A DNA stretch of 64,000 nucleotides from an uncultured bacterium (GCA_963722655.1 CAVRNT010000001.1:17447-81446), one strand, 5' to 3'. Numbered from the stretch's first letter, positions 8,910 to 64,000 are shown. Notes: generated by a model from the sequence alone, not told the origin. Numbers and translations: made by a program.

Positions 8910-9129
8910 AAATGGACTCCAATAAGTTGCTCATCCTTATTGTAAGACCGTTTTGACCCGTTTTGTTTTCGACAATTTTTGTTTTTTTCGACTGTTCGAC
9001 TTAAGTTTTCCTTAAGCCGCCGACCTTTAGAAGTTTCGGAAAACCTGGTTCCGCCGCTTTTCGACCCCCGCCTAGAGTGAGGACTAAGCGGCGGAAGACG
9101 GTGGAATCGGTTGTTAATATCTAAAATTT

Positions 9130-47550: not shown

Positions 47551-47807
47551 TATAATCCGGATTTAAGGAGGATGCTAAACGATGCCAGCAATAAAACCCT
47601 GGTGCCCCCTCATGGTCTCAGAATTGTAGGAATGAGACCACCTAAGGGTTATTTGACTATCTTTCAAAATAACGAATCTAGCCCTCTCGGTAGCATTCGT
47701 TATTTTATTGTAAGGCAAAACAAGAGCTTTTCAAATAGAAAAGGTGCTTTGGGATTGTTACGAAAGTGACAAGTTTTTGAGACTTTGGGATGTAACATTC
47801 TCAAACT

Positions 47808-48344
47808 CTAGACCAACCGCACATCCATCAGTCTTATCGTAAGCATATGTTCGCTTACTCTATAAAGTTTTGAAAGAACTTGAAGATCTGGGCTATTACC
47901 AAAATCCTTCTTTATAAATCCCGTTGGTACTAAAAGTTCTCCGGCAAAAAGATTGGCTTCTCTCTCGTTGTGGGTTCCATCATCCTGTTTATTTGTGCAT
48001 GTGTGTCCTAATAGTAAATGACCGATTTCGTGGGCTATGGTAAAGCGGCGTCGGCACCATGGCTGATTTCCATTGAAACCGATTGTAGCGTATTCAGAAT
48101 CAATTTCTTTACAAACCACCAACAAGCCGGAAACCTTATTTCCAATATTTATTTTTTTAACATCAAGATCATGAGTTGCCTGGAGATACTCAATAACACG
48201 CTGGAGCGAAACCGGCGCGGTGTTTATACTGGCTCCATTAATTACCTTCTGAGCAAGTACCTTGACCAGTTTTTTGCGCGGCCCCAAATCTGGAATATCA
48301 TTTTCCATCTCCACTCGTCTTGCTCCTTTGCTTAGCCAGATCAA
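47808..48344 (-). CDS. ImmA/IrrE-family (M78) metallopeptidase
   Basis: HEIGHLLLGH is the HEXXH zinc motif in the ImmA/IrrE context. It overlaps the XRE gene upstream by 47 nt. Confidence 0.8.
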   Translation of the reverse strand: MIWLSKGARRVEMENDIPDLGPRKKLVKVLAQKVINGASINTAPVSLQRVIEYLQATHDLDVKKINIGNKVSGLLVVCKEIDSEYATIGFNGNQPWCRRRFTIAHEIGHLLLGHTCTNKQDDGTHNEREANLFAGELLVPTGFIKKDFGNSPDLQVLSKLYRVSEHMLTIRLMDVRLV

Positions 48345-48648
48345 TAAACCGGAGAATAGCGTCCTTATCCTCCTTAGCGAGTTCTTTATCGGCTCGAAGA
48401 GCCACCTGAACAGTCGTGGTTGTTTTCTCGTCTTGTCCCAAGAAATATTTTATATCCCGGTGAAGTACCTCGCTTAGCCTCTGCAGAATAGATGAGGACA
48501 CCCCCCGTTCGCCACTTTCTATTAAAGAAATTGCGGTAGCCGACTGAAAGCCCAGAGCCTTGGCCAAATCGATCTGGGAAAGACCCATTTCCTCGCGGGC
48601 GGCCTTAATCCACGAACCTATATGGTTAGCGTTTGCTTCGTTTTTCAT
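48298..48648 (-). CDS. XRE-family helix-turn-helix transcriptional regulator
   Basis: GLSQIDLAKALGFQSATAISLIESGERGVS is the Cro/C1-type HTH. Confidence 0.8.
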   Translation of the reverse strand: MKNEANANHIGSWIKAAREEMGLSQIDLAKALGFQSATAISLIESGERGVSSSILQRLSEVLHRDIKYFLGQDEKTTTTVQVALRADKELAKEDKDAILRFIDLAKQRSKTSGDGK

Positions 48649-48750
48649 ATTGAAAGTATAGGCTTATCATTCCGATTTGACAATATTCACCATTTTGCTA
48701 AAATGGGTTTATCATTTTGGAAGGTCGCCAGTTAACCAGTAATAATCATC

Positions 48751-49023
48751 ATGAGCACATATCTCGTATCATATGACCTAATTCGCCCAGGGAAGGACTA
48801 TACCCACCTTCTCGAGCATCTTAGGAGCTACTCCGACTGGGCTAAGCCGCTCGAATCGGTATGGCTCTTGAAGAGCGGACTCGGGATCGCGGAGCTTCGC
48901 AATACGATCCAGGCCCATATGGATTCTAACGACAAGATTCTTGTCGTAGATATCACCGGAAAGGCTGCGGCGTGGGATAAACTCCCGAACGACGTCAGCA
49001 CGTGGATAAAAAACAACATATAA
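48751..49023 (+). CDS. hypothetical small protein (possible Cas2/VapD-like alpha+beta fold)
   Basis: 90 aa. MSTYLVSYDLIRPGKDYTHLLEHLRSYSDWAKPLESVWLLKS has the YxVxYDL...SVW pattern reminiscent of Cas2/VapD N-termini. No other support. Confidence 0.35.
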   Translation: MSTYLVSYDLIRPGKDYTHLLEHLRSYSDWAKPLESVWLLKSGLGIAELRNTIQAHMDSNDKILVVDITGKAAAWDKLPNDVSTWIKNNI

Positions 49024-49051
49024 AAAGTCGCTAAATAAATTATCGGCCATA

Positions 49052-49426
49052 GTGGCCAAAAAAACAACCATGGGATCAGGAGTAAATCGTAGGAAGGGGG
49101 ACAATATATCAATAACACCTCAAAAACCGCGTCCAATATCTGGCACGGGAGGAAGCTATTCCCCGACATCACAAGAAAATCGCAAGGGTCCGGTTTGCCC
49201 ATCTTCATTCCGGGCAGATTTAAGCCGCCACCTAATGATTGGTTCTCACCTATCATTGAGACAGCACGGCGAGACACTCGTTATTTACGCCGACTCCCAA
49301 GAAGTCGGACGCCTCAATCGAGCGACATCAAAAAGGATTATCAAATGCATTCTATCCGGATTTCGTTACGAAGGCGTCGTGAAGGAGAACGAGGGTCGAC
49401 AGTATGCTGAATTCACCCAAAAATAA
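49052..49426 (+). CDS. hypothetical protein
   Basis: 124-aa ORF. The N-terminus is low-complexity and basic. It overlaps the next gene by 23 nt. Confidence 0.3.
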   Translation: MAKKTTMGSGVNRRKGDNISITPQKPRPISGTGGSYSPTSQENRKGPVCPSSFRADLSRHLMIGSHLSLRQHGETLVIYADSQEVGRLNRATSKRIIKCILSGFRYEGVVKENEGRQYAEFTQK

Positions 49427-50531
49427 AACATTGCCATTATTTTCCGTAACTTGCGACGTCGCACACGGCAAGTTTTTGCCGTACATAACAAAAGACGAAA
49501 GTTACCAGGTGCAGATGCCCTGTAGCCCAAAGTCGGAGAATATCGTTTCTTGCAAAAATCCCGATCTCAGCACGTATTTGAAGGAGATTGATGGTTTGGA
49601 TTTTGTAACCGTTAGGGGCAAACCGATTACATTACCGATACCCAAACTTATCCCGATTATTGATAGGGGCCTGTTTAAAAATTCGGCTGAGATAATGGGT
49701 TATGACACTATTGGCATTTCCTTAGAAGACATCTTTTCTTCTTCGCCTCAAAGGAAAGATGGCAAGTTCTACATCCCCCAACTCAAAATAAGAGAGGACG
49801 CGTTACAGAACCCGATTTTCAAAAACAAGAAGGTGATACTTTTCTCGAGCGGAAGGGATGTATTGATCGAGAAAATTTGGCAGGATTTTTATGAACTGAG
49901 ATTTCCGGAGAAATTGTTCCAGATGGGTGTAGCTGTGGTTACCGGGATAAATTTTTCCGTTTTCTTGGACGATTGTCCTCTGTCAAAGGCATTAAACATG
50001 AAAAAGAGCCTGAAAACAGTAGAATACTTCCAGGACGCCGGGATCGAAACGATCCCGCATATATATTTCACGCACACGAACCATCTTCATCGTTGGAGTG
50101 CGTGGTTACAAGCGAATCCAGCCGTGAAAACCGTGGCGATTAACTGCCAATTCAGTCGCGATAGACGTGTCGCGCACATGGTAGCAGACGGCATAAAACT
50201 CTTGGCCGACAATGCGGGTCGCGAAATCCATTTCTTGCTTGAAGGACCGTCACTGTTTCTCTTAAACGAAATAAACCAGCTCGGATACATGACCAACATC
50301 ATGATTGCCATCAAAGAACCCTCTATGGACTCAATGTTTGGTAAATTATATTTTATAGAAAATGGTCGGCTCAAGAAGAAAACGACTTTCGGACTCAAAA
50401 TAGACCAACTGCTTACGCCAAATTTCAAGACATACGAAGAATACATAAGTCGTCTTTCTCCCAGATATTTTACTGTGGGCGCGAGTAATTCTCTAATATC
50501 CCAACAAAAAGGAAAATATTCTAACGGATAA
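49404..50531 (+). CDS. hypothetical protein (375 aa, no recognised domain)
   Basis: A long ORF with consistent codon usage. Conserved-looking blocks VILFSSGRDVLIEKIW and GINFSVFLDDCPLSKAL. No motif assignable by eye. Confidence 0.45.
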   Translation: MLNSPKNKTLPLFSVTCDVAHGKFLPYITKDESYQVQMPCSPKSENIVSCKNPDLSTYLKEIDGLDFVTVRGKPITLPIPKLIPIIDRGLFKNSAEIMGYDTIGISLEDIFSSSPQRKDGKFYIPQLKIREDALQNPIFKNKKVILFSSGRDVLIEKIWQDFYELRFPEKLFQMGVAVVTGINFSVFLDDCPLSKALNMKKSLKTVEYFQDAGIETIPHIYFTHTNHLHRWSAWLQANPAVKTVAINCQFSRDRRVAHMVADGIKLLADNAGREIHFLLEGPSLFLLNEINQLGYMTNIMIAIKEPSMDSMFGKLYFIENGRLKKKTTFGLKIDQLLTPNFKTYEEYISRLSPRYFTVGASNSLISQQKGKYSNG

Positions 50532-50566
50532 TTCATTCCATTCAAATATTTGATAAACTGAATTAT

Positions 50567-51379
50567 ATGAAAATGATAAAACTAAAAAAACTCCCTAAGC
50601 GCAACATATATGATAAGAATTATTACAAAGCCCAGGCAATGTTGCGGGATCCATGGTTTATAGAAAAAGCGGAATGGCTCAAGAAGCGTTTTACGGAGAT
50701 TGGTTGCTCCCTTCCCAAGAAGCCTTTTAAAAAATATAAAACATACCAAGCTTGGAATAAGAGATATTGGGATCGCTACACCGAGATGGAAAAAAGTCAT
50801 GAATTTTTAGAAGCAAAACGGCGAATCACAGGAAACAAGAGGATGATATCCATGGAAGAATTTAATGCGTTAGAGAATTTTCGAGAAGGATTTTTACCTC
50901 CCACATACGGCCGAGTGTTCACCGAGATATTGGAACATTTTGGCATTGGTTCAAAAGACGAGAGGTTCCGTAATTTCCTAGAATTCTATTTCTTTTTAGG
51001 GCAGAAGGAATATGTTAAGCCAAAGCTTTCAATAAAATTCACTAGGGATTCAAAAACCAATGAAACGGAAATGTTCCTGCGTATTTACGGATATACCAAA
51101 AAAGAAGATATTATGCGACAGTGGGATTGGATTTCATGGAATCAAAAGAGTCTTAAGGATTTCGTCGGTAAGAACAAGGCATGGAAAACATTCAATCGGG
51201 ACATCGCGATCTACAATCTCTACAAAAAAATGAAAGATCCTAAAACTAAGCGCCAGCCGAATGATAACGGCCTCGATACGAAACTTTGGCTGGCTTTAAA
51301 AGAGAAATGGCCGAAACTGACCATTAGTAGCGTTCGCACCATCGTAAATAGAACTCGGAAAAGACTTGGCGAAATCTAG
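50567..51379 (+). CDS. hypothetical basic Trp-rich protein
   Basis: 270 aa, very AT-rich coding sequence. Lys/Arg/Trp-rich (WFIEKAEWLKKRF, YQAWNKRYWDRY). No recognised domain. Confidence 0.45.
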   Translation: MKMIKLKKLPKRNIYDKNYYKAQAMLRDPWFIEKAEWLKKRFTEIGCSLPKKPFKKYKTYQAWNKRYWDRYTEMEKSHEFLEAKRRITGNKRMISMEEFNALENFREGFLPPTYGRVFTEILEHFGIGSKDERFRNFLEFYFFLGQKEYVKPKLSIKFTRDSKTNETEMFLRIYGYTKKEDIMRQWDWISWNQKSLKDFVGKNKAWKTFNRDIAIYNLYKKMKDPKTKRQPNDNGLDTKLWLALKEKWPKLTISSVRTIVNRTRKRLGEI

Positions 51380-51445
51380 TATTTACGGTTAAACAATCTG
51401 CTTAACAGCGACACAGGGTGTCGCCTTTCTGTTTAAGATGGGAGC

Positions 51446-52723
51446 ATGATTAAAAATAAATTAGTTTGGCGCACAGAAATGCGCCACGTGTCGGACTTGG
51501 TGCCGAATCCTCGGAATCCCAGGACCATGAGCCCGAGTCAGACGGAAGCGCTCAAGAAAAGTCTTAGTAAATTCGGGGTGGTGGAACTTCCGGTTATAGA
51601 TGCGGATAATCAGGTGATCGCCGGACACCAGCGATTAATGGCTCTCCGTCTTCTCGGCCGGGAAAACGAGGAAATCCCGGTCCGAGTGCCGAACAGAAAG
51701 CTCACGAAGCGCGAGTATGACCAATATATGCTCACGAGCAACCGTGTGCACGGCGAATTCGATTGGGACAAACTCGCCGAGAATTTCGATATCGATGCCA
51801 TCCTCGCGAGTGGATTCGAGGATGCGGATCTCTCGCTCATATTTGACGACGTTTCCGTAGAAGACGACGAATTCAGAATCGACGATGAATTAAAGAAGAT
51901 AAAGAAAACGGACGTTAAACCTGGAGATTTATACCAACTTGGCTCTCACCGGATCATTTGTTCCGATTGCACGGACCCTAAATCGGTCAAAAGACTCATG
52001 GATGGCAAGAAGGCCGGTGTTATCCTCCAAGACCCGCCTTTCAACATAAATCTGAGCTATAACGCCGGAATCGGCGGCAAAGGCAATTACGGCGGCACCA
52101 TGGACGATTCAAAATCGGACGAGGAATATGAATCGCTTCTCCGCAAGGCGCTGGCGAACGGCCTCTCCGCCTGTGCGAAAGACGTGCATGTATTCACGTA
52201 CCACGATCCCCGATATGCGTGGCTTCTCCAAAAATTATATAAGGAACTCGGCATTACGTACCGGCGAACTTGTCTATGGATCAAGAATAATTCCACACCG
52301 ACACCAAAAGTGGCTTTCAACCGACAGTACGAACCCGCACTTTATGGAACGATCGGGAAACCGTACCTTTCTGAACGCGCTTTCAATTTCTCGGAAATCC
52401 TCAATCACGATGTCGGAAGCGGTAATCGCACGATCGACGACATCTATGATCTCATCGATATATGGCTCGTGAAGCGGCTGAGTGGATCGGAATACGAACA
52501 TCCGACCGAGAAACCGCCGATGCTCCACGAACGGCCGCTACGTCGCTGTTCGAAGCCGGGAGATATCATCCTTGATCTCTTCTCAGGATCGGCGAGCCTT
52601 ATGGTCGCTTGCCATCAATTGAAGCGGATCGCGTATATGGTCGAACGCGAGCCGATTTTCGTGCAGCTTGCGCTAAATCGTTATGAAAAACTCACGGGAC
52701 AAAAAGCAAAAAGAATCGCCTAA
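51446..52723 (+). CDS. ParB-like nuclease domain fused to beta-class N6-adenine/N4-cytosine DNA methyltransferase
   Basis: N-terminus RHVSDLVPNPRNPRTMSPSQTEALKKSL...VIAGHQRLMAL is ParB/Srx-like. DPPF motif IV (ILQDPPFNINLSY). C-terminal motif I FSGSAS. Confidence 0.85.
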   Translation: MIKNKLVWRTEMRHVSDLVPNPRNPRTMSPSQTEALKKSLSKFGVVELPVIDADNQVIAGHQRLMALRLLGRENEEIPVRVPNRKLTKREYDQYMLTSNRVHGEFDWDKLAENFDIDAILASGFEDADLSLIFDDVSVEDDEFRIDDELKKIKKTDVKPGDLYQLGSHRIICSDCTDPKSVKRLMDGKKAGVILQDPPFNINLSYNAGIGGKGNYGGTMDDSKSDEEYESLLRKALANGLSACAKDVHVFTYHDPRYAWLLQKLYKELGITYRRTCLWIKNNSTPTPKVAFNRQYEPALYGTIGKPYLSERAFNFSEILNHDVGSGNRTIDDIYDLIDIWLVKRLSGSEYEHPTEKPPMLHERPLRRCSKPGDIILDLFSGSASLMVACHQLKRIAYMVEREPIFVQLALNRYEKLTGQKAKRIA

Positions 52724-53456
52724 GCCCGGCGCAATCTGGCAGCTCGGGGTACATCGCCTCGCCTACGGGGATTGCCGCGACAAGAATCTTTTGGAAAGAC
52801 TCATTGGCAAAGAAAAAATCAACCTCGTCTGTTGCGACGTGCCGTACGGCGTGGATGTCGCCGCCTCGAAGCGGAACTTCCGCACCCTTTCCAAAGACAA
52901 GGACATCGCGAACGACCAAACCCAATCGAATGCGGAATACCGGTCATTCAGCCGCGAATGGCTTCAAGCAATCACGCCATCCCTGGCAAGTAAAAACTCC
53001 GCCTATATCTTCAACGCCGATAAGATGGTTTGGCCACTCCGAGACGGGATGATCGACGCCGGATTCAAGGTGGCCCAGCTCCTCGTGTGGGTGAAATCGC
53101 AGGCGGTTATCGGCCGACTCGATTACGCCCCGCAGCATGAGCTTATTCTCTACGGCTGGCACGGCACTCATAAATACCGCCGGTCAAAAGACAGAAGCGT
53201 TCTGTTCTATCCGAGGCCATCTAAGAGCAAACTGCATCCGACGACCAAGCCCATCGGCCTTATCCGTCGTCTCATTCTCAACTCATCGGAAATCGGGAAT
53301 GCAGTCTACGACGGATTTCTCGGAAGTGGAACCACTCTTCTCGCTTGCGAGCAGACGAAACGCAGATGCCTTGCGGTGGAAATTGATTATGAATATTGCC
53401 AAACGGCAATCCATCAGTGGGAACGACTGACGGGCAAAAAAGCAAAACGACTATGA
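52683..53456 (+). CDS. beta-class DNA methyltransferase (N6-adenine/N4-cytosine)
   Basis: Motif IV CCDVPYGV (a DPPY variant). C-terminal motif I FLGSGTT. It overlaps the preceding MTase by 41 nt. Confidence 0.85.
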   Translation: MKNSRDKKQKESPKPGAIWQLGVHRLAYGDCRDKNLLERLIGKEKINLVCCDVPYGVDVAASKRNFRTLSKDKDIANDQTQSNAEYRSFSREWLQAITPSLASKNSAYIFNADKMVWPLRDGMIDAGFKVAQLLVWVKSQAVIGRLDYAPQHELILYGWHGTHKYRRSKDRSVLFYPRPSKSKLHPTTKPIGLIRRLILNSSEIGNAVYDGFLGSGTTLLACEQTKRRCLAVEIDYEYCQTAIHQWERLTGKKAKRL

Positions 53457-53941
53457 AAAAGAACGACCAGACGAAGAAACTTATTATCGAGCAGCTGCAC
53501 AAAACACCGATAGTGGAAGTGGCGTGTCAGAAAATCGGCATATCGAGGATGACCTTTTACCGCTGGAAGAAAGACGAGCCGGAATTCGCGAAGCTTGCGG
53601 ACGAGGCGATTTTCGAAGGCCAATCCCTCATGAACGATCTAGCGGAAAGCCAGCTCATCGGCGCGGTCAAGGAAAGGAATCTGCCCGCAATCATATATTG
53701 GCTCCGGCACCACCATCCCGATTATGCGAATAAGCTTGAAATCAAGCACGCGATTCAGGACGAAAATCTGACTCCGGAACAGGAAGCGCTCGTCCGGGAA
53801 GCTTTAAGACTAGCCACCTTGAGTGAAGAAAAGGTCGAAATCAACCCAGAAGAAAAAATCGATGAATTACAAGAACATAATCCCGCCGGAACTGACGGAG
53901 GCGATGATAAAGGACCGGAAGGTGCGGGTGGCGATCACTAA
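53453..53941 (+). CDS. putative terminase small subunit / HTH DNA-binding protein
   Basis: HTH region IVEVACQKIGISRMTFYRWKKDEPEF. Its position is directly upstream of terL. The start is taken at Met20, overlapping the MTase stop (ATGA). Confidence 0.45.
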   Translation: MKKNDQTKKLIIEQLHKTPIVEVACQKIGISRMTFYRWKKDEPEFAKLADEAIFEGQSLMNDLAESQLIGAVKERNLPAIIYWLRHHHPDYANKLEIKHAIQDENLTPEQEALVREALRLATLSEEKVEINPEEKIDELQEHNPAGTDGGDDKGPEGAGGDH

Positions 53942-55323
53942 AGAGAGCCACTGGTACTTCTTCCATTTTTACTTCGCCCACTACGTCAAATATCCGACGG
54001 CGAAATTCCAAGCCGAGATATTCGAATTGACCGAAAAGGACAACGGCAATTTCTTCGTCGTCGCTTTCCGCGGAAGCAGCAAATCCACAATCCTCACGAC
54101 CTCATATCCGATCTGGGCGATCTTGGGAAAACAGCAGAAAAAATTCGTGCTCATCCTCTGCCAAACGCAGAGCCAGGCGAAACAGCATATGATGAATCTC
54201 CGCCGGGAGCTTGAAAGCAACGCCATTCTCAAAAGGGATCTGGGTCCGTTCCGCGAAGAATCCGACGAATGGGGTTCGTCGTCTTTGGTGTTTTCGAATA
54301 TGAACGCCCGCATCACCGCCGCCTCGAGCGAACAGAGCATTCGTGGTTTGCGGCACAACCAGCACCGGCCGGATCTCATCATCGGAGACGACGTGGAGGA
54401 TTTGGCATCCACCAAGACCCGGGAAGGCAGGAACAAGACGTACCAGTGGCTCACGGGCGAGGTTATCCCGTCCGGCGACCGAAGCACCCGGATCGTAGTC
54501 GTGGGGAACCTTCTCCACGAAGATTCTCTCCTCATGCGGATCAAGGAAGATATCGGGAATCAGAAGATCGACGGGGTATTCAAGGAGTACCCGCTCATGC
54601 TGAACGGCGAGATTCTGTGGCCGGGGAAGTATCCGTCCATCGACGATATCCAAGATGAAAAAAGGAAGGCGGGAAACGAATTCGCCTGGGAGCGGGAGTA
54701 CATGCTCCGCATCGTGCCGGACGAAGAACAGGCGATCCTTCGCGAGTGGATCCAATATTACGATGAGCTCCCTTCTGGAGAGACCGATTGCCAGGGGTAT
54801 CCGAAGCACGTCGAGGTGCGTATCGGCGTCGATCTGGCGATCTCGAAGCGCGATACCGCCGATTACACCGCCATGGTTCCCGGGTGGCTCTACGGAGATG
54901 ACAGGGATACGAGAATCTACATCCTACCGGATATTATTAACCGCAGAATATCGTTCCCTGAAACGGTCGATCTCTGCAAAGCACTCAACAGGAAATACGA
55001 GGAGGAGCAATCAAATCCCACGTTTGTCATTGAGGATGTCGCATACCAAAGATCTCTCCCTCAACAGCTTGAGAGATGAGGGAATCCGGGACGTGAAAAC
55101 CACCCATCCGGGCAATCAGGACAAGCGGAGTCGTCTCATACTCACCGCGAACGTCATCAAGAACGGCAAGGTGAAGTTTCCGAAACAAGGTGCCGAAGGG
55201 CTCATAAACCAGATCGTTCACTTCGGCGTCGAGAAACACGACGATCTCGCCGACGCGTTCTCGAACCTCGTCCTGAGCGTCATAGAAGATCCGCCGTCCG
55301 TTCCGAGAATATGGCTGCTTTAG
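53862..55323 (+). pseudogene. terL: phage terminase large subunit, interrupted by a +1 frameshift near 55075
   Basis: Frame A (to 55079) has the ATPase Walker A FRGSSKST, Walker B LIIGDDVED, and nuclease motifs I and II (RIGVDLAISKRD, FVIEDVAYQ). Frame B (55076-55323) continues with ...IVHFGVEKHDDLADAFSNL, which is nuclease motif III. The N-terminal start is uncertain. Confidence 0.7.
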
Positions 55324-56688
55324 TCATTTGGATTCGGCTTCGTCGGGAATCGTTTCGAGGTATATTTTCCTATCTTTCAGGATGAGTTTGCTTCGCAGAC
55401 TCAGAAGGATGTGGCGTTTCTCTTCTATGGTTCCTTCGGCCAAGAGATACTTCACGTACTTCTTGGTGTCGGCGTTGCGTTCTTCGACGTTCGCATATCC
55501 TCCCGGATTTCCCATCACGTCGCGATGGAAACGATAGATGCGTTCCACCTCGGCGTCGAATTGTCCCTGAACGCCGAGGTCTTCGAGCGTCAGCTGGTCC
55601 ACCAAATTGCGGATCTGCTCGATGAGATCCGCTTCGCGGACGTAAAGCAATTTGCACTGCGGATTTCTGACGCGCGTGCAGCCGTAGTAAACGTACTTGG
55701 CGATCGAGCCGTCTTTGAGCGTCTTGAACTTTTCCTCCCCGCAGATGCCCGATCCGCAAAGCCCGCATTTCATGAGGCGCGTGAACGCGAAGTTCTTACG
55801 GAAAATGGCGAAGAGATGTTTCCGGCGGGTCAGGGCTTTGGCAACGGCGTCAAAAAGCTCTTCGGAGACGATCGGCTGGTGTTGTCCTTTGTACCACTTG
55901 CCGCTATGGATCGGGTATTCAAATTCGCCGTAGTAGAACGTTCGGCGCAGGATCAATTGGACCGTGCTCAACGATATGTGCTTCCCGTTCGGGGAAAGAA
56001 AATGCAATTCATCCCTCAACCATTCCCGAATTCTGCGCTGACTCCATCCGTCCGCCGCTTTCTCGAACATCATGCGGATTACGTGCGCCCGGGCGGGATC
56101 GGTAAGGAGTACGCCGCGGCGGTCCTTCTTGTCGTCGCTCACATATCCCATCGGGGGAACGCCCGGCCAGCAGCCCCGTTCGCAGAGCGCCCGAAGCCCG
56201 CGCTTCACGTTGATGCTGCGGTTATCATTCTCGAGTTTGGCTTGGGAGCCGAGAATCATGAGAAGGAACTTCTCGTTCGGCGAATCGCTGAACTTTTGGT
56301 TGTACGTCCGAATGTCCAAGAGCAGCTTCTTATCCATGAGATCGACGAGTCGCCCGAGATCTCCGGCGTTCCTGCTCAGGCGATCGGGGTTCCACGTGAG
56401 AATCCCGTTGTATCTACCGTTCGTTATCTCCTCAAGCATTTTATTGAATACCGGACGCTCGCCGGAATCTTTGGCGGAATGGGCTTCGGTGCGTACGACT
56501 AAAATATGGAGATTGTCCCGTTCCGCCACTCGTTTCATTTCCACGATCTGCGAATCAATCGATAATGCTTGCCGCTCTTCCGTTTCCATGGATTTCCGGG
56601 CGTAAAGACAATATTCTATCGGCAGAGGTGTTTTTTGCTTTGTTGTGGTCGCGATTTCAGGCGACCCCTCTTTTATTACATCGTTCAT
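55324..56688 (-). CDS. large serine recombinase (resolvase/invertase N-domain + recombinase domain + zinc ribbon)
   Basis: The N-terminal catalytic region EYCLYARKSMETEERQALSIDSQ contains the candidate nucleophilic Ser (YARKS). Recombinase domain (GYVSDDKKDRRGVLL). Cys4 zinc ribbon CGLCGSG...YYGC. Coiled-coil C-terminus. Confidence 0.85.
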   Translation of the reverse strand: MNDVIKEGSPEIATTTKQKTPLPIEYCLYARKSMETEERQALSIDSQIVEMKRVAERDNLHILVVRTEAHSAKDSGERPVFNKMLEEITNGRYNGILTWNPDRLSRNAGDLGRLVDLMDKKLLLDIRTYNQKFSDSPNEKFLLMILGSQAKLENDNRSINVKRGLRALCERGCWPGVPPMGYVSDDKKDRRGVLLTDPARAHVIRMMFEKAADGWSQRRIREWLRDELHFLSPNGKHISLSTVQLILRRTFYYGEFEYPIHSGKWYKGQHQPIVSEELFDAVAKALTRRKHLFAIFRKNFAFTRLMKCGLCGSGICGEEKFKTLKDGSIAKYVYYGCTRVRNPQCKLLYVREADLIEQIRNLVDQLTLEDLGVQGQFDAEVERIYRFHRDVMGNPGGYANVEERNADTKKYVKYLLAEGTIEEKRHILLSLRSKLILKDRKIYLETIPDEAESK

Positions 56689-56819
56689 AAGTATTGGTTG
56701 ATTTTTTATTTCTTAAAGACATAAAAAAGCCATCAGATATTTTTATGGTGGACGAAAAAGGGCAGTAATAATCTTCTCTGATTTGGAGTGAAGATTTACG
56801 CCGACATTAAACAAGGATT

Positions 56820-57732
56820 TTACTTGTTGTATTCGTAGCTCTGCCTGATAAGGGCCGTCACGGCGTCAATATCTTCGTCGCGGCTAAGTCTCACTTCATA
56901 GTCGCCATTGCCCCAATGACCGATGGCTTTCGGTTTCGTAAGATCTCGCGCCAGTCCCAGGGGATCGATGAGATTTCCGCTCGGAACATTAAGAAAGATT
57001 TTGAGTGCATCCTTAGAAACTACGATATCCACGAAATTCGTCGTCAGCTTGTATGCGATATACTTTGCCTTAGGTTCTTCGGTAATTGATTCATCAAGAG
57101 AGGTGATTTTCTCTTTAATGGCCGAGAAAAGCTCTTGGATGTGCGGGCTGGCGGTCTTTAAGATGGTCTTCGATGGTGTGTTGGATTTTTTCCTTAAATT
57201 CGCCTTTCTGTTTTTCTATTTTCTCAAAAATCTCTGAGGTTGAGATTTTCACCTTGCGTTGCACTTCGGGGTCAACGAGAAGGATATTGTTTTCATACAT
57301 GCGATACCGCAGAAGCTCAATGTCCATCGGTAGAAGATCAGCGGTATCAAGATCGAATTTATTGTAGCTCTCCGCAACGCAGATCACGCGTGGCGAAGCC
57401 CAATCTATTTCAATCTTGATTTCTAATCGGTGTACTAATGCTTCAAAATCCGCTTTGTGATCCAGAAGCCAGCGGAGATATGAAAGTCCTTGGTTGATGA
57501 CGTTCTCATTCTGACCACGCTTGTATTCGATGATGACCGGAGAACCGTTGTGATCGATGCCTAGGGTATCCATGCGTCCACCGAAACTCGTTGGGTATTC
57601 GGAGGCAAGGAATATGATATCTAAAATCTCCTCAAGATTTTTCTCGAAGATTTTCTGAATATCCTTTTCAAGCCCGACTTTTACAGACGGAACCTTTCTT
57701 GCTGCATTATTGTTTATGGAATATATAGCCAT
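56820..57732 (-). pseudogene. PD-(D/E)XK (DUF91/NucS-like) nuclease family protein, split by a frameshift at a T6 homopolymer
   Basis: The 205-aa N-terminal ORF has GGRMDTLGIDHNGSPVIIEYKRGQ (D...E.K). The downstream frame, open from 57215 and ending at 56820, encodes a further 130-aa domain. The two frames overlap across the ttttt-t run at 57186-57191. Confidence 0.55.
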
Positions 57733-57743
57733 GATGAGTGGCT

Positions 57744-57870
57744 AGCGGAGGGGTATATAAACACTAAGCCCCGCGCTAGCTAGGTCTTGCGACCCTACAC
57801 CGGTTTCCCGATATAGCCCTTGGAAGAGTCGCTGAACGCGGGGTTCAGTATCTTCCAAGGGTCTTTTTAG
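57744..57870 (+). promoter_or_regulatory. nested palindromes / strong terminator-like structure in intergenic region
   Basis: gctagcg...cgctagc (57744-57780). Then cccttggaaga-gtcgctgaac-gcgggg-ttcagta-tcttccaaggg (57817-57861), followed by tcttttt. Confidence 0.5.
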
Positions 57871-57947
57871 CCATGCCAAGCAAAATACCTGGTTTAGGCG
57901 ATCTATCCAATATTCAATTATTTAAAGAATATCACGCTTTTTGCAAT

Positions 57948-57977
57948 TTGACAGCACACCCCTCAGAGAGCTAAGTT
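57948..57977 (+). promoter_or_regulatory. candidate sigma-70 promoter for the 57987 gene
   Basis: TTGACA-N18-TAAGTT ends about 10 nt before the ATG. Confidence 0.3.
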
Positions 57978-57986
57978 CAAGAACAA

Positions 57987-58748
57987 ATGGAATTTAATAT
58001 GAGAAAAACAAGAGAATTTTTTGGTAAGTTAGATTGGAAACTTATTTTATTTCCGATTGTATTCCTGTTATCGGCCTATGCATCGTATCTTCTACTTAGA
58101 TCATACTTCTCCCCAGCATTACGTCCCAGTATTATCTTTTTGATGGTGCTGGCATCTGTGACCATAGCCTTCGTTTTAACTGGCCTTATTTTTGCAATCT
58201 TCATATTGTGTCTGCTCACATTATTTGCGCCAATTAACAGCCACTTTTTTAATAAGTATTTAAAGACGGTTAAGCAGGACGCCTCGGCGGGAGTAGCTAT
58301 TATTCTCGGACGCCCTAATTGGTTTAAATTCAAAGGGTGGTATAAAATCAACTTTACTAAACGCGAGATGGAGTTAATTTTCGGATACTTAGGAAAAAGA
58401 TGGTTGGACTTTCGTGTTTATCCGCACGCAAGTTTCGAGGATATCGAGAAGATAATGGGCGATTCTAGTATCCGGGAAGTTTTCTTCTGCGGTCATGGAG
58501 ATTCTCACACCTTCAGACTAACCACCGATGAAACCATCTTTTATTGTGACTTTAAGGGTCCAAAATACAAGAAAGATTTCGTACATCAGGTACATTGTGG
58601 AACAAAAGATGGCAGCGATAGAAGATTAATCGATTATGTTGTGCCTGAAGAAAATCGCGGCCAATGTTTCTATTTTCCTAAATCAATTACCTCTCGCGAT
58701 ATCAGAAAAGAATTTGAGAGAAGAATAGAAAGATTGACTAGCCATTAA
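57987..58748 (+). CDS. two-TM membrane protein with conserved His/Cys-containing C-terminal domain (hypothetical)
   Basis: 253 aa. Two TM helices (residues 20-90). The C-terminal soluble domain has VFFCGHGDSHTF...IFYCDF...VHQVHCGTKDG. Confidence 0.5.
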   Translation: MEFNMRKTREFFGKLDWKLILFPIVFLLSAYASYLLLRSYFSPALRPSIIFLMVLASVTIAFVLTGLIFAIFILCLLTLFAPINSHFFNKYLKTVKQDASAGVAIILGRPNWFKFKGWYKINFTKREMELIFGYLGKRWLDFRVYPHASFEDIEKIMGDSSIREVFFCGHGDSHTFRLTTDETIFYCDFKGPKYKKDFVHQVHCGTKDGSDRRLIDYVVPEENRGQCFYFPKSITSRDIRKEFERRIERLTSH

Positions 58749-58761
58749 ACATGGCTAACTT

Positions 58762-61700
58762 TTATTCCGGGAATTTACCACCCGAAATATCGAAGTACTT
58801 ATCAAAGAAACGCGTCAATTTATTTAGAACACTCTCTCGTTTATGCGTACGCTCTCCGGTCGGTGAAAAACGCGATACGGGCGGAAGCACTTTTGTCAGC
58901 GCCGTTCCGGTTGAGGCGACTACGCCGTCACGGAAAGAATTACGCACAAAAGTGTATGTTGCATTACGATCAAGATTTTCCTTCGCGATAATGGTATCGA
59001 GATCCTCGATCTTTTTCTTATCCACAAATTCGTGCCAATCTTCATCGACAATTGAATGAACATCGAGTGATGAGATGAACTGATTGATCAGCTCTTTTTT
59101 ATTACGCAGCTCTACACTGGAATCAATGGCTTTATTGATGTCGATCAAAAGCTCGCGATTTTTCGTGTGACCCTCGTGATATTTTTTGATGAGCGTCAGC
59201 ACGTAATCGATATTGATTTCCACCTGCTTGATCAATTCCATTTCAAACACGACATCATCGATAATACTTTCCTTTTCCTTCTCGACGCCTTTTCGAAATT
59301 CAGCGTAGAGATCGATATACATACTGTGATAATCCTGAATATCACGCTCAGTCAAAATCTCATTGCCAGCAAATTCATCGAAAGCCATTAGAATATTACG
59401 CAACCGCAAGATCGCCCCGTATAGCTTTATAAAATCTTTTTGGTTTTGCTCCCCGACGATCTGCTCTCCGGCAGGGAATTTCTTCATGAGTTCATCCACT
59501 AAGCTCACGTATCCATAAACCTCTTTATCAACGTCTTTATAACCGTTGTAATAGTCGGCGTATGATTTCAAAAGAATGATACCGCCCGCCTCCTTATCGC
59601 CAAAGAGAGCCACTGATTCATTGGTCGCTCGTTCTAAATTGCGAAAGCAAACGATATTTCCAAAAGTTTTTACACTGTTCAGAATTCGATTTGTCCGTGA
59701 ATATGCCTGCAAGAGGCCATGCAATCGCAGATTCTTATCCACCCAGAGTGTGTTGAGCGTCGTTGCGTCAAAGCCGGTCAGAAACATATTAACGACGATC
59801 AGGATGTCGATCTCGCGATTCTTGACCCTCAAACTGACATCCTTGTAATAATTTTGGAATTTGTCGGATGAAGTGTCGTACGACGTTCCGAACATTGCAT
59901 TGTAATCCTCGATGGCCTTCTCCAAAAAATCCCTTGAGCTGGCATCGAGACCGCTGGTATCCTCCGAATTTTCATCAACAACACCGTCCGCTTCCTCTTC
60001 GTTCACTCCGAAACTGTAGATGAGTGCTACTTTGAGACGTTTATCGCTCGGGACGTCCGTAAGTTGTTTCTTAAACTCGGCATAGTATTTTTTGGCAACA
60101 TCTATAGATGCGGTAGCAAAGATCGAGTTGAATCCAGCGAGCCTTCTTTCGTTCAATTTATAGAAGCTATTGCGTTTGGTCTTCTGATCGAAATGCTCAC
60201 GGATATAACGCACGATATTAGTAAGTCGATCCGGCGCAGAAAGTACCGCTTCGCGATCGATATCGCTCACTTTCTTGTCCTCTATATTTTCCGCCTCACG
60301 CACCGTAGAAACGTAGTCAACCTTAAACGGCAGAACATTTCTATCATTGATGGCATTTACGATGGTATAGGTATGCAGTTTTTCACCAAAGGCCTGTTCG
60401 GTGGTCTTTAAATCAGGGCGCCCACCAGAAGAGGCATTTACCGCAAAGATCGGCGTGCCGGTAAATCCAAAAAGGTGATAATTTTTGAACGCCTCCGTGA
60501 TGGCATCGTGCATATCGCCAAATTGGGAACGGTGACATTCGTCGAAAATAATCACGACATGCTGGTTAAAAATAGCATGGCCGACATTCCGTTCGATGAA
60601 ACGGTCGAGTTTTTGGATGGTGGTAATAATGATTCGCGCATTCGGATTCTCGAGTTGACGCTTCAGAATGGCGGTAGAGGTATTACTGTTTGCTGCTCCT
60701 TTTTCAAATTTGTCGTATTCGCGCATCGTCTGATAATCCAAGTCCTTACGATCCACCACAAAAAGTACCTTATCAATATAGGGAAGTTTGCTCGCAAGTT
60801 GCGCCGTCTTAAAACTGGTAAGCGTTTTACCGGATCCGGTAGTGTGCCAGATATATCCTCCGGCCTCAACAGTGCCAAGCTTCTTGTAATTCGTACTGAT
60901 TTCAATGCGACTCAAGATGCGCTCAGTCGCAACGATCTGATAGGGGCGCATCACGAGCAGTTGCCAATCGGCAGTAAATACACAATATCGGGTTAGGATT
61001 TTTAAAAGGACATGCTTCGCAAAAAATGTTTTCGCAAAATCCATCAAATCCGTAATCGGCGCATTTGTCGCATCAGCCCACCAGCTCGTGAATTCAAAAC
61101 TATTGCTCGTACGCTTTCCCTTTTTTACCGCACCCTCATTCATCTCCTTAATATGCGTGTTGCGCGTGGTGTTGCTGTAATACTTGGTATGTGTGCCGTT
61201 TGAAATGACGAATATCTGGACATATTCAAAAAGACCCGATGATGCCCAAAAACTTTCCCGCTGATAACGGTTGATTTGGTTGAATGCTTCCTGAATGGCC
61301 ACGCCACGACGCTTCAGCTCGATGTGCACCAGCGGCAATCCATTTACAAGCACGGTTACATCATATCGATTAGCGCGTTGTCCTTCGTCAGTCGCATATT
61401 GGTTGATAACCTGTAAATCGTTGTCATGGATATTATCTTTCTTCAGAAGATAAATATTTTTTACCGCGCCGTCATCGCAAGTGAGATTCTTGATATAATC
61501 CTCCTGAATCGTCGCAGTTTTTTCTTCAATGCTCTGATTGGGGTTGGCGAGTTCTCCCGCAAAAAACGATTCCATTCGGCATCGCTAAAAGTGAAATCGT
61601 TTAACCTCTCCAGTTCACGGCGCAAATTCGCGATAAGGTCTTCCTCGCTCGCGATAGGCAAAAATTCGTAAGCCTGAGCCTTAAGCTCACCGATGAACGC

Positions 61701-61817
61701 GTGTTCAAGCTCCGCCTCGCTTTGATAGGTTATCGGATGTGATTTGCTCGGCATATATTTGGCCACTACCGTGCTTTCAGGATTTTCAACGATCAAATTA
61801 ATTTGATGCTCTTCCAT
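58762..61817 (-). pseudogene. hsdR: type I restriction enzyme R subunit (EcoR124I-like), interrupted at a T6 homopolymer
   Basis: The N-terminal 118-aa ORF (61461..61817) aligns with the EcoR124I HsdR N-terminus (YQSEAELE...FSDAEWNRF). The 937-aa ORF (58762..61575) continues (ELANPNQSI..., RYDVTVLVNGLPLVHIELKRRG nuclease motif, TGSGKT, DECHRSQ helicase motifs). The frames join at tttttt (61561-61566). One extra T would give NRFFAGEL. Confidence 0.8.
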
Positions 61818-61818
61818 G

Positions 61819-62286
61819 TTAAGAGAAGGTTAAAAGTTTAGTTCGATAATATTCATACTGCGATTGACGAGCAGAAATCTCGGCGGGAAGGCCAATGGAA
61901 ATATCGGTTACGAGCACATCAAACTTGTCTAAGATAGAAACGATACGTTCCTGCTCGACAAGTGGTGGGAGAGGAATTCTATATTTTTTGACTTCAGTAT
62001 CCGATATCGCTGGGTAGTTTGTCCCTCTTTGTGCATTTTCTACATACTTAGAAAACCTCCGCAGACCTAGCTGATGGTATATATAATTTGTTAGGGTTTC
62101 AGTGCTCTTAGGGCGCAAAACACAAAATCCAGTACTACAGATTTGTCCATCATATTGATCAGTAATAATACAAAAACGTCCCAGCGTTGGTCTTGTTGTG
62201 CCAAAAATTACGTCGCCAGTTTTTACAATTTTTTGTGCTCGACTTGGCGCCGTCTCATTATCAATTTTTTGCGTGTCCGTGATCAT
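61819..62286 (-). CDS. hsdS: type I R-M specificity subunit, C-terminal half (TRD2 + distal conserved region)
   Basis: IPLPPLVEQERIVSILDKFDVLVTDISIGLPAEISARQSQYEYYRTKLLTF is the conserved HsdS C-terminal region. The start is taken at MITDTQ. Confidence 0.7.
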   Translation of the reverse strand: MITDTQKIDNETAPSRAQKIVKTGDVIFGTTRPTLGRFCIITDQYDGQICSTGFCVLRPKSTETLTNYIYHQLGLRRFSKYVENAQRGTNYPAISDTEVKKYRIPLPPLVEQERIVSILDKFDVLVTDISIGLPAEISARQSQYEYYRTKLLTFS

Positions 62287-62354
62287 GTGTTTTTCTCTGT
62301 CTACCGAAGACAAATCAATGTAATAGAATTGCCCTCCTATATTTTCTGACCATT

Positions 62355-63074
62355 TTATTGTTTAGTTATTTCACAAATTTCACTAAGCGGAGCCCACCGT
62401 ACCCCCCCCTCTTCGTCAAACGTTAAAAGCTCCGAGCGGTAATACTCGTATTGCTTCTTTCTTGCTTCTAGCTCTGCTTCTAGCTCTGCTTCTAGCTCTG
62501 CTTCTAGCTCTGTAAAATTATCTAAAATATTTATAATCTCTTTTTGGATGTCAAGCGGCGGGAGAGGGATTTTTATTTTTGCAAACCGCTTTTTTGAAAC
62601 GTTGAAACGCGTAACTCCACTCGCAGTTTTTGCAATTTGCTTTCTCATTTGTTCATCCCTAAATAAATATTTTGAGAACTCCGGTAAAAGTAGGGTTTTG
62701 TCGTTCAAGCGAAAGCCAAAACAAAAACTGTTGAGATATAACGACCCATCGACTTTCTTTGTTAAGACAGAAGACATGCCACATTCATTCGGTGTTTCAG
62801 ACGAACCAGTAAACAACACATCGCCGTACTCGATTTTGTTTTGTGATTCACCCTTACCTACCCTGACAAAGTCTTTAATATCGGTTTTTACAGCAATATT
62901 AGAAAACACATTCATGTAGGTAACAAATTTGGCGTTACCATCGTGAAAATCATCTTTACTCTTTCCAGTTAATCCACCATAAAACTCACCTAATTCACCT
63001 AGTGTCCTAAACTCCACTCCGTCCGGGCAGAGCTCCGCGATCAGTTTTTCAATTTTGCTTTGGCGTTTTGTCAT
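62355..63074 (-). CDS. hsdS: type I R-M specificity subunit, N-terminal half (TRD1 + central conserved region with ELEA x4 repeat)
   Basis: IPLPPLDIQKEIINILDNFTELEAELEAELEAELEARKKQYEYYR is the central conserved region. It ends shortly after TRD2 begins (VRWAPLSEICEITKQ*). The ATG overlaps the hsdM stop (ATGA). Confidence 0.75.
   Translation of the reverse strand: MTKRQSKIEKLIAELCPDGVEFRTLGELGEFYGGLTGKSKDDFHDGNAKFVTYMNVFSNIAVKTDIKDFVRVGKGESQNKIEYGDVLFTGSSETPNECGMSSVLTKKVDGSLYLNSFCFGFRLNDKTLLLPEFSKYLFRDEQMRKQIAKTASGVTRFNVSKKRFAKIKIPLPPLDIQKEIINILDNFTELEAELEAELEAELEARKKQYEYYRSELLTFDEEGGVRWAPLSEICEITKQ
62464..62511 (-). repeat. 4 x 12-bp perfect tandem repeat (gcttctagctct) encoding (ELEA)4 in the hsdS central conserved region
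   Basis: Direct reading gives four identical 12-mers at 62464-62511. Confidence 0.9.
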
Positions 63075-64000
63075 TTTGTTCCTTCTATATCTGCCACGAT
63101 ATCATCGATTGCACTGCGAAGTTTTTGTTGTCGCTCAACGATGCTGGCTATCTCCGCGTTGAGCGTCACGATGTCCACTACCTCGCGCGTGTCTTCCGCC
63201 ACCACATAGCTTGATACAGCGATGTTATAATCGTTTTCTGCGATAGCTTTGTTATTCACGAGCTTCGCAAAATATTTCATATCCTTCCGCGCGATGAATG
63301 CATTCAATATTTTCGTGCGATTCGCTTCCGTAAGCTTGTTTTTATTTCCAGCATGCAAAAATTCGGCCGAGGCGTCTATAAAAAGTGTCTTGTTATCCTT
63401 CTTACTTTTCTTCAGCACAATGATACAGGTGGCGATGGTAGTGCCAAAAAATAGGTCGTGCGGAAGTTGGATGACGGCATCGATATAGTTGTTGTCGACG
63501 AGATACTTGCGAATCTTCTGCTCTGCCCCGTTGCGGTAAAGCACGCCGGGGAATTCAACAATTGCTGCCGTGCCATTAGTGGCAAGCCACGAGAGCATGT
63601 GCATCGTGAATGCGAGGTCAGCCTTACTCTTTGGCGCAAGAATACCCGCCGGAGAAAAACGCGGATCATTAATAAGGAGCGGATTGCTGTCGCCCTCCCA
63701 ATGAATAGAATATGGCGGATTGGACACAATGGCCTCGAACGGTTCATCATCCCAATGCTTTGGGTCGATGAGTGTATCGCCGTGCTCGATATCGAACTTG
63801 CTGTAATTTATATCGTGCAAAAACATATTGATGCGGCAAAGGTTGTAGGTGGTGAGGTTGATTTCCTGCCCAAAGAAACCAATCCGCACATTTTCTTTAC
63901 CGAGGATCTTTGCGAATTTAAGGAGAAGCGAGCCAGAGCCACACGCCGGATCATACACCTTATTCACCTCCTTCTTCCCAACGATAGCGATCCGCGCCAA
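63071..64000 (-). CDS. hsdM: type I R-M N6-adenine DNA methyltransferase subunit (partial, N-terminus beyond window)
   Basis: Motif I VYDPACGSGSLLL, motif IV NPPYSIHW, and an HsdM C-terminal coiled region. The ORF runs to the window edge. Confidence 0.85.
   Translation of the reverse strand: MARIAIVGKKEVNKVYDPACGSGSLLLKFAKILGKENVRIGFFGQEINLTTYNLCRINMFLHDINYSKFDIEHGDTLIDPKHWDDEPFEAIVSNPPYSIHWEGDSNPLLINDPRFSPAGILAPKSKADLAFTMHMLSWLATNGTAAIVEFPGVLYRNGAEQKIRKYLVDNNYIDAVIQLPHDLFFGTTIATCIIVLKKSKKDNKTLFIDASAEFLHAGNKNKLTEANRTKILNAFIARKDMKYFAKLVNNKAIAENDYNIAVSSYVVAEDTREVVDIVTLNAEIASIVERQQKLRSAIDDIVADIEGTK

Follow-up and report, generated by a model that had tools for sequence, protein, structure and literature searches.

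Two described defense systems combine an enzyme with a partner protein that bears a conserved glycine at position 2. In type IV cyclic-oligonucleotide-based antiphage signaling systems (CBASS), the N-terminus of CdnD reads M(G/S)G(G/S)GG, and its Gly2 sits in the pocket of Cap10 and carries 7-amido-7-deazaguanine. In QatABCD, Gly2 of QatB lies on a long N-terminal tail that enters the active site of QatC. The enzyme DpdA depends on a ParB-like ATPase, DpdB (PMC10164549), and in phages DUF4417 frequently occurs in fusion with ParB-type NTPase domains (bioRxiv 10.1101/2025.10.10.680097). Here we analyze four open reading frames (ORF1 to ORF4) at positions 48751-51379 of a 64,000-nucleotide stretch of DNA from an uncultured bacterium (GCA_963722655.1 CAVRNT010000001.1:17447-81446), which we term the window. 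Our main subject is the pair formed by ORF2 and ORF3. With moderate confidence, we interpret this pair and the adjacent ImmA and XRE genes as a self-contained two-gene conflict module, probably inducible by damage or infection, whose most likely function is antiphage defense.

The coordinates and lengths of the four ORFs, and their location on the strand opposite to the regulators, are borne out by ORF calling (Table 1). Purifying selection on the homologues of each ORF marks all four as real genes, and none of them shows homology to ordinary phage replication or structural proteins. ORF1 and ORF2 are separated by 28 nt, ORF2 and ORF3 overlap by 23 nt, and gaps of 35 nt and 66 nt separate ORF4 from ORF3 and from the downstream ParB-methylase gene (start 51446), respectively. 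The genes lie in a low-GC island with a GC content of 0.48 over 47.6-56.7 kb, compared with 0.57 in the surrounding region; individual values are 0.50 for ORF1, 0.475 for ORF2, 0.42 for ORF3, 0.386 for ORF4 and 0.50 for the ParB-methylase gene. For these genes, the closest relatives of the window are assemblies of the candidate phyla radiation (CPR; Patescibacteria).

The original prediction, made from this sequence alone, regarded the four ORFs as a single cargo cassette in which ORF1 is a Cas2/VapD-like component and ORF4 a later, AT-rich addition. The genes do share one strand and tight spacing, and ORF1 also accompanies ORF2-ORF3 in the closest relative of the locus (L015). Nonetheless, a single cassette is already contradicted by the synteny data and seems to us most improbable: ORF2-ORF3 occurs in 36 non-redundant loci, and besides the window ORF1 is found in only one of these (L015) and ORF4 in none. 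In phages ORF1 stands alone, and ORF4 is always tied to ParB-methylase, TerS and TerL genes and is AT-rich everywhere. The ORFs are three unrelated units, namely ORF2-ORF3 with ImmA-XRE, ORF1, and ORF4 with the backbone of an integrative element.

The ORF2-ORF3 pair

A word-indexed search with ORF3 yielded 16 homologues, and an exhaustive profile search yielded 954 clusters (50% identity) at E ≤1e-3 and 107 at E ≤1e-30. Genomic contexts were drawn from an assembly index, GTDB genomes and JGI metagenomes, and clustering gave the 36 non-redundant loci (L numbers) that contain the pair, besides which there were a few matches that were truncated or very distant. Loci were retrieved with short conserved peptide patterns from the 16-sequence alignment, which favors closer relatives. 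The word-indexed search with ORF2 gave one protein, and ORF2 orthologues were taken from ORF3 neighborhoods.

In every non-redundant locus with 5′ sequence, an ORF2 homologue of 114-129 aa ends within the start of ORF3 (tblastn, jackhmmer). Sequences from two different metagenome samples carry the two genes as a natural in-frame fusion of 488 aa (L030, 2185-3651; L031, 2104-3570), for which P0008 is an unfused relative. Hosts of the pair include Paceibacterota, Moraniibacteriota, Saccharibacteria and Chitinophagaceae (Pseudoflavitalea, Hanamia, Niastella and Flavihumibacter). A distant pair on the conjugative Rhizobium etli plasmid pRetIE4803d (L060, 3914-6101) consists of a 116-aa protein that begins MGLDYIRRD and a 425-aa ORF3-like protein with a far more Cys-rich N-terminus. 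Across the CPR phyla and in Bacteroidota, ORF2 and ORF3 occur as an obligate pair of overlapping, at times fused, genes, and Alphaproteobacteria contain a distant version. ORF3 has no match among 50,697 phage records or in IMG/VR contigs, which argues against its being a phage gene. No model of PADLOC 2.0, NCBIfam or PHROGs matches the pair, and it is absent from the few papers on DUF4417 and from those found on deazaguanylation or TGT-like defense.

Residues M1, G2, D11, C43, C93 and Y100 are invariant among 30 orthologues of ORF2. Gly2 is present in 35 of 35 non-redundant ORF2 genes, with all four glycine codons in use, and Ser3 occurs in 29 of the 35, encoded by five different codons. Retention of these residues across varied codons indicates selection at the protein level. 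In 29 of these 35 genes, no possible start precedes the Met-Gly codon pair within the ORF. In the window, translation probably starts at ATG 49070, because the upstream GTG (49052) adds six non-conserved residues. An inverted repeat with a 7-bp stem (TCGGCCATAGTGGCCAA) at 49043-49059, between ORF1 and ORF2, overlaps this GTG; it could split transcription of ORF1 from that of ORF2, or could influence the choice of ORF2 start.

From ATG 49070, ORF2 encodes ~118 aa with a flexible, basic and Gly-rich N-terminal tail. The consensus of the family begins MGSGxKRKxNDxVxI, followed by a Gly-rich linker, a CPxSF motif and a beta-rich C-terminal domain of ~70 residues. No Pfam domain was found in ORF2, and a profile search of the PDB returned only a designed protein (E 0.6). 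A HIRAN domain was considered and dropped, with a weak match in only two of 30 members (best E 0.01).

The AlphaFold2 model of ORF3 (pLDDT 81, pTM 0.81) is a beta/alpha barrel that is confident over residues 60-350. Two fold searches were run with this model, and its best matches are QTRT2 (6fv5, scoring 14.8), DpdA (7ui4, 14.6), TGT (3unt, 13.9), archaeosine TGT (1iq8, 13.7) and Cap10 (9ntn_B, 12.9), the margin of the structural match being modest. ORF3 of the window scores 19.0 bits against Pfam DUF4417 (PF14386), below the gathering threshold of 28.9, and nine of 16 close relatives likewise match below threshold. Two more distant family members pass the cut-off (32.5 and 34.0 bits), and tblastn from ORF3 reaches annotated DUF4417 proteins on Streptomyces plasmids with E values down to 4e-11. 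Together, these profile scores and tblastn matches indicate superfamily-level membership in DUF4417. Although no domain in ORF3 had originally seemed assignable, we now describe the protein, on the strength of its model, as a TIM barrel with a "TGT-like fold, DUF4417 superfamily," and not as a member of the TGT family.

Across 87 members of the ORF3 family, the near-invariant residues are C17, P80, P84, D152, E156, W159, S185, N198, P218, N238, Q249 and G281, most of which, the conserved polar residues included, sit just past successive beta-strands in the model. This is the usual catalytic face of a TIM barrel, and we infer that ORF3 has a conserved active or binding site. D152, present in 86 of 87 members, is the sole near-invariant Asp; D109 is found in 63 and E280 in 34. 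Counted without a structure-based residue alignment, the spacing of D109, D152 and E280 (43 + 128 residues) resembles that in Cap10 (49 + 126).

TGT carries a C-terminal Zn site (CxCxxC...H), and ORF3 has no such motif, its conserved cysteines being N-terminal instead. Residues 1-55 (window 49404-49570) hold a triad formed by C17 (85 of 87 members), C40 (69 of 87) and C50 (75 of 87). The triad falls in the only low-confidence part of the model, and ORF2 has the invariant Cys43 and Cys93. It is conceivable that cysteines of the two proteins build a shared metal site that forms only in the complex.

An association of DUF4417 with ParB is also seen in Kitasatospora pKP058 (L061, 3304-5729), where a gene for a ParB N-terminal domain overlaps a DUF4417 gene in the transfer region. 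Because this association mirrors that of DpdA with DpdB, and because the Gly2 feature of ORF2 is shared with CdnD and QatB, the connection to TGT appears to be more than a coincidence of fold.

With DpdA among the nearest folds of ORF3, the pair might serve DNA modification as an anti-restriction measure. ORF3 would then carry out a DpdA-like base exchange on the DNA of the element before packaging, much as the two downstream methylases modify it, with ORF2 as a DNA-targeting or activating subunit. Canonical DUF4417 is joined to ParB-type NTPases by fusion or by adjacency, an arrangement also seen with methylases and paralleled by the pairing of DpdB with DpdA. The pair and a ParB-methylase share one element in the window, L007, L036 and L050, with TerS and TerL also present in the window and L007 (TerS in L050), and in the window the pair lies upstream of the methylase and packaging genes in the same orientation. 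We nonetheless judge DNA modification unlikely, since about 32 of the 36 loci have no terminase or ParB-methylase nearby, and several loci (L015, L018 and L020) have no mobile-element genes at all. Furthermore, phage genomes and viral contigs gave no instance of the pair, it has no linked gene for deazaguanine synthesis, and the Gly2 tail is without a counterpart in Dpd systems. An inducible repressor with a peptidase would also suit a toxic effector better than a protective modification.

Regulators and genomic neighborhood of the pair

XRE repressors and zinc peptidases of the kinds represented by CapH/CapP, ImmR/ImmA and the Zn-peptidase antitoxins control defense or toxic operons, and repressor-peptidase switches de-repress defense operons or mobile-element genes upon DNA damage. 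ImmA of the window matches Pfam Peptidase_M78 (E 2.9e-16) and PADLOC capP (E 5.2e-21), and XRE matches Pfam HTH_3 (E 8e-13) and PADLOC capH (E 4.3e-11). XRE is co-transcribed with ImmA and divergent from ORF1-ORF3. Homologues of ImmA and XRE stand beside the pair in 20 of the 36 non-redundant loci, 15 times as separate divergent pairs and five times as a fused helix-turn-helix (HTH)-peptidase protein. The two genes are thus more than the neighboring switch for which they had been taken.

The intergenic region between XRE and ORF1 contains a plus-strand site, TTGACA-16-TAAAAT with a TG extension (48677-48704; 11 of 12 matches), that is the best promoter-like site in 9.5 kb. It is overlapped by a minus-strand site, TTGTCA-17-TATACT (48683-48655). 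The −35 and −10 hexamers of the region are conserved in L015. A 26-nt direct repeat, with copies at 48646-48671 and 48691-48716, may be the operator. Judged by sequence, these elements would act as promoter and operator.

The fused regulators, of ~360 aa, occur in Bacteroidota (L023, L026, L042, L043 and L045), and the one from L023, the sole one scanned, matches RmrA with an E value of 3e-45. A conserved 139-aa ORF that follows the fused regulator (the two together at L023, 3920-5418; the ORF also in L025) is co-directional with ORF2-ORF3, and might encode a third component or else a Rosmer-type toxin distinct from the pair.

RmrA-like HTH-Zn-peptidases are the antitoxin type of RosmerTA, and their position ahead of the Bacteroidota pair is one of several features that would fit a type II toxin-antitoxin system. 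ORF3 would be a toxic enzyme and ORF2 an antitoxin that plugs its active site, with addiction or stabilization, rather than the sensing of phage, as the main role. Consistent with such an arrangement, a small upstream gene overlaps a larger downstream gene, the pair resides on mobile elements and in defense islands, and the strictly conserved tail of ORF2 could be inhibitory. However, the stable in-frame fusion of the presumed toxin and antitoxin in two independent samples is difficult to reconcile with this arrangement. ORF2 also has no recognizable DNA-binding antitoxin domain, and regulation is supplied by the separate XRE and ImmA genes. We therefore consider a toxin-antitoxin role rather improbable, although many toxin-antitoxin pairs are themselves defense systems, so that the two interpretations overlap.

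The genes that flank the pair in other genomes are frequently those of known or candidate defense systems (Table 1). In L017, a serine recombinase and an R-M (restriction-modification)-like methylase and helicase lie upstream of the pair. It is because of these defense-island neighbors and the CapP/CapH-like regulators that we read ORF2-ORF3 as a defense module. The original suggestion of defense or anti-defense cargo therefore stands for ORF2-ORF3, with its defense-type neighbors in unrelated genomes and its capP/capH-like regulators, and fails for ORF4, which belongs to the backbone.

If the pair functions in defense, XRE would repress the strong rightward promoter at 48677-48704 until DNA damage or a single-stranded DNA signal causes ImmA to cleave it, whereupon ORF1-ORF3 would be expressed. 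In this element, the same induction would also lead to expression of ORF4 and of the methylase and terminase genes. After removal of the initiator Met, the Gly2 tail of ORF2 might enter the barrel of ORF3, by analogy with the tail of CdnD and Cap10 in type IV CBASS. The complex would then act on a nucleic acid or nucleobase through exchange, excision or conjugate transfer, and so halt phage replication or the infected cell. The reaction might be exchange or excision of a base or transfer of a protein-nucleobase conjugate, or the active site might simply be plugged.

Several points weigh against this interpretation. The defense role is inferred from neighborhood and regulators only, and insertion of the tail from analogy alone. 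ImmA and XRE are not found near the pair in 16 of the 36 loci, some of them on short contigs. The orientation that the pair shares with the methylase and packaging genes of the window would also fit modification of the element's own DNA. TGT and DpdA have three invariant active-site aspartates, which serve as general acid/base, in base recognition and as nucleophile, and their conservation in ORF3 is not demonstrable. No profile link joins ORF3 to TGT: there is no match to Pfam TGT, a profile search of the PDB gives nothing at E ≤10, and hhalign of the 87-sequence ORF3 profile with E. coli TGT reports a probability of 0.1. Finally, no ORF of any fetched locus has the SGGxDS PP-loop motif of QueC-like enzymes, and no called gene in the annotated loci matches the QueC family of Pfam, so a deazaguanine adduct on Gly2 would need host enzymes or other chemistry.

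A more specific version of the defense interpretation is that ORF2-ORF3 is a minimal, QueC-free relative of protein deazaguanylation in type IV CBASS. A TGT-fold enzyme might draw on the free alpha-amine of Gly2, or on a nucleobase adduct of host origin carried by its partner's tail, and thereby join protein covalently to a nucleic acid or nucleobase as the immune effector step. We regard this proposal as doubtful. If true, it would provide a system of just two proteins with which to identify the target of Cap10-type transfer.

ORF1, ORF4 and the integrative element

ORF1 matches phrog_1090 over residues 1-90, corresponding to positions 1-88 of the 90-position profile, with an E value of 2.7e-25. 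Its homologues occur in 57 phage records (tblastn), always as a solitary small gene, located among other places in lysogeny modules. In Enterococcus phage phiFL1A the homologue lies between XRE/ImmA genes and a cro-like repressor, and in a Mannheimia phage it lies beside the early region. In the P2-like phage R18C it occupies a variable slot between tail fiber assembly and tail sheath genes, which is the Z/fun region of P2, well known as a site where exclusion genes accumulate. Among ORF2-ORF3 loci, ORF1 is present only in the window and in L015 (71% identity, same position). ORF1 is an independent accessory ("moron") gene of temperate phages and stands outside the conserved pair; in the window it would be a phage-type accessory gene lodged behind the promoter of the ORF2-ORF3 module.

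The Cas2-like pattern noticed earlier in ORF1 is real and weak. PADLOC Cas2 models match with E values of about 7e-4, and the Pfam profile CRISPR_Cas2 (PF09827) scores 17.5 bits, below its threshold of 23.8. ORF1 is similar in length to Cas2 and VapD, Cas2 profiles align over most of it at sub-threshold scores, and several of its phage homologues are annotated as Cas2. Conversely, ORF1 is flanked by XRE and ORF2, so there is no adjacent cas1 (CRISPR arrays were not searched for). Comparison of ORF1 with PDB sequences produced only noise. Its fold is possibly of the Cas2/VapD type.

ORF4, a predicted helical HTH protein, belongs to a family of 28 proteins, one of which is named as Candidatus Paceibacterota by its source. 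Four independent contigs (L011-L014) place ORF4 first behind a divergent LexA-like S24 repressor, with ParB-methylase, TerS, TerL and serine recombinase genes following in order. Proteins of the element are 44-80% identical between the window and the syntenic L007 and L011-L014. As had been noted, ORF4 is AT-richer than its surroundings, with the lowest GC content of the stretch. The separate acquisition proposed to account for this is rejected, because in these four sister elements ORF4 is syntenic with ParB-methylase, TerS and TerL, and each time no other backbone gene is as AT-rich. ORF4 is a candidate excision, replication or activator factor.

The window element (47600-56700), L007 and L011-L014 form a family of CPR elements with one shared backbone, in which the second methylase is only sometimes present. 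No capsid, portal or tail genes were found in these elements. Behind the repressor, the defense cargo of L012 is a type II CBASS-like operon (patatin, SMODS, E1/E2 and JAB), that of L014 a ThsB-type TIR gene and that of L011 a GIY-YIG gene. In the window, the ImmA/XRE-ORF2/3 module (plus ORF1) holds the slot that the LexA-like repressor and cargo hold in the sister elements.

The position of the pair just downstream of a divergent repressor is an "early" one, as in ICEBs1 and phage immunity regions, and could indicate that ORF2-ORF3 serves the life cycle of the element, in replication initiation or in excision directionality of the serine recombinase, with XRE/ImmA as a lysogeny-type switch. 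Serine recombinases related to that of the window (52% identity) adjoin the module in L004 and L017. However, many loci (L015, L018, L020, L021, L023 and others) have the pair without a recombinase, and its position and direction with respect to the backbone differ between L007 and the window. Moreover, the sister elements L011-L014, with the same recombinase and terminase, lack the pair entirely, and TIM-barrel enzymes are not known to initiate replication or to act as directionality factors. A life-cycle role is thus very unlikely, and defense continues to be our preferred interpretation.

TerL of the window is frameshifted near 55060-55080. A 418-aa ORF stops at 55079, and ~85 conserved C-terminal residues resume in the frame of the ORF at 54655-55323; intact homologues have 477-509 aa. 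The split reflects either a decaying element or an assembly error. Beyond the recombinase, low-GC DNA goes on through 56800-64000, a region that includes a 253-aa membrane-like ORF, a candidate defense gene and a type I R-M system (Table 1). The HsdR protein shares 83% identity with another HsdR, which likewise adjoins the recombinase in L011.

Table 1. Features of the window and genes next to the ORF2-ORF3 pair in other loci
Location	Feature	Coordinates	Strand	Remarks
Window	ImmA	47808-48344	−	ORF call; left of ORF1-ORF4
Window	XRE	48298-48648	−	ORF call
Window	Putative promoter pair and direct repeat	48646-48716	both	XRE-ORF1 intergenic region
Window	ORF1	48751-49023	+	90 aa, ATG start
Window	ORF2	49052-49426	+	124 aa from GTG; probable true start 49070 (MGSGVNRR...)
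Window	ORF3	49404-50531	+	375 aa, ATG start
Window	ORF4	50567-51379	+	270 aa, ATG start; predicted helical HTH DNA-binding protein; first backbone gene of the element
Window	ParB-N6/N4 methylase	51446-52723		Pfam/PHROG/NCBIfam
Window	Second methylase	52683-53456		Pfam/PHROG/NCBIfam
Window	TerS-like	53396-53941		Pfam/PHROG/NCBIfam
Window	TerL (frameshifted)	53823-55323		Pfam/PHROG/NCBIfam
Window	Large serine recombinase	55324-56688	−	Pfam/PHROG/NCBIfam
Window	PDC-S18 candidate defense gene	57115-57732		205 aa; E 1.3e-68
Window	HsdR (type I R-M)	58762-61575		
Window	HsdS (type I R-M)	61819-62313 and 62355-63074		split
Window	HsdM (type I R-M)	from 63071		
L004	Type I R-M			flanks the pair
L008	Shedu			flanks the pair
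L017	Type VII retron-like pair	7051-8969		directly downstream of ORF3; reverse transcriptase (RT) VII-A2 E 8e-110, DUF3800 partner E 6.6e-54; Candidatus Saccharibacteria
L021	OLD/Gabija-like ATPase			with type IIG methylase
L023	CBASS-type peptidase effector			
L037, L038	Type IIG R-M			flanks the pair
L040	dGTPase			
L054	PDC-M01A/PtuA (Septu-like)			
L058	PDC-S41 Schlafen-like helicase			
L060 (R. etli plasmid)	Type II R-M methylase subunit			one side of the pair
L060 (R. etli plasmid)	Gabija-type genes (TOPRIM OLD family and UvrD-like helicase, as annotated)			other side of the pair

Comparison with described systems

The regulators resemble CapH/CapP, ImmR/ImmA and DdrO/IrrE in that an XRE repressor and an HExxH M78 Zn-peptidase lie upstream of, and divergent from, the putative target operon. 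ImmA of the window (178 aa) covers positions 5-153 of the 242-position CapP model, and the C-terminal GAF domain of CapP is probably missing. A further difference from CapH/CapP is that the window switch probably also controls the methylase and packaging operon of the element. For RosmerTA, the likeness is that of the fused Bacteroidota regulator to RmrA.

Judged by its gene content, the element as a whole looks similar to phage-inducible chromosomal islands and other phage satellites, being likewise small, with a repressor switch, an integrase, TerS and defense cargo, and lacking capsid and tail genes. It differs from them by its large serine recombinase, by carrying TerL in addition to TerS, by its ParB-methylase and by its CPR hosts, and it has no recognizable primase or replication gene. 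Mobile elements and immunity in CPR bacteria are poorly known, and this comparison exposes small, terminase-carrying elements loaded with defense genes in these organisms.

Canonical DUF4417 proteins are typically phage or plasmid proteins of ~200-370 aa that are often fused to ParB, and their direct homology to ORF3 is weak, covering model positions ~32-115. In contrast, the ORF3 subfamily is extended at the N-terminus by ~130 aa that include conserved Cys residues, is not found in phages, and is always accompanied by ORF2. The pair would give DUF4417 a first functional context, through a link to TGT/DpdA-type enzymes that handle nucleic-acid bases.

In QatB and QatC, as proposed here, a partner with a conserved Gly2 occurs in defense, together with an enzyme derived from the queuosine pathway. 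QatC, however, is a QueC-like PP-loop ATPase and not a TIM barrel, and QatA and QatD are without counterparts at these loci. In type IV CBASS, the Cap10-CdnD pair is resembled by ORF3-ORF2: ORF2 and CdnD have in common an invariant Met-Gly start, and ORF3 has, as modeled, the TGT fold of the accessory protein Cap10. Unlike type IV CBASS, the loci of the pair have neither a CD-NTase nor an effector of the CBASS kind nor a QueC-like Cap9, and ORF2 is without a SMODS/CD-NTase domain. The catalytic Asp/His pair and the base-reading Asp residues of Cap10 are not demonstrable in ORF3, and Cap10 is without the N-terminal Cys triad of ORF3; Cap10 also lacks the C-terminal Zn site of TGT. ORF2-ORF3 is probably an undescribed antiphage system. 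Cultured hosts of the pair exist in Pseudoflavitalea rhizosphaerae and Rhizobium etli, and the combination of a TGT-like enzyme with a Gly2-tailed partner in just two proteins offers a simpler model for the task that the TGT-like enzyme performs with its Gly2-tailed partner in type IV CBASS.

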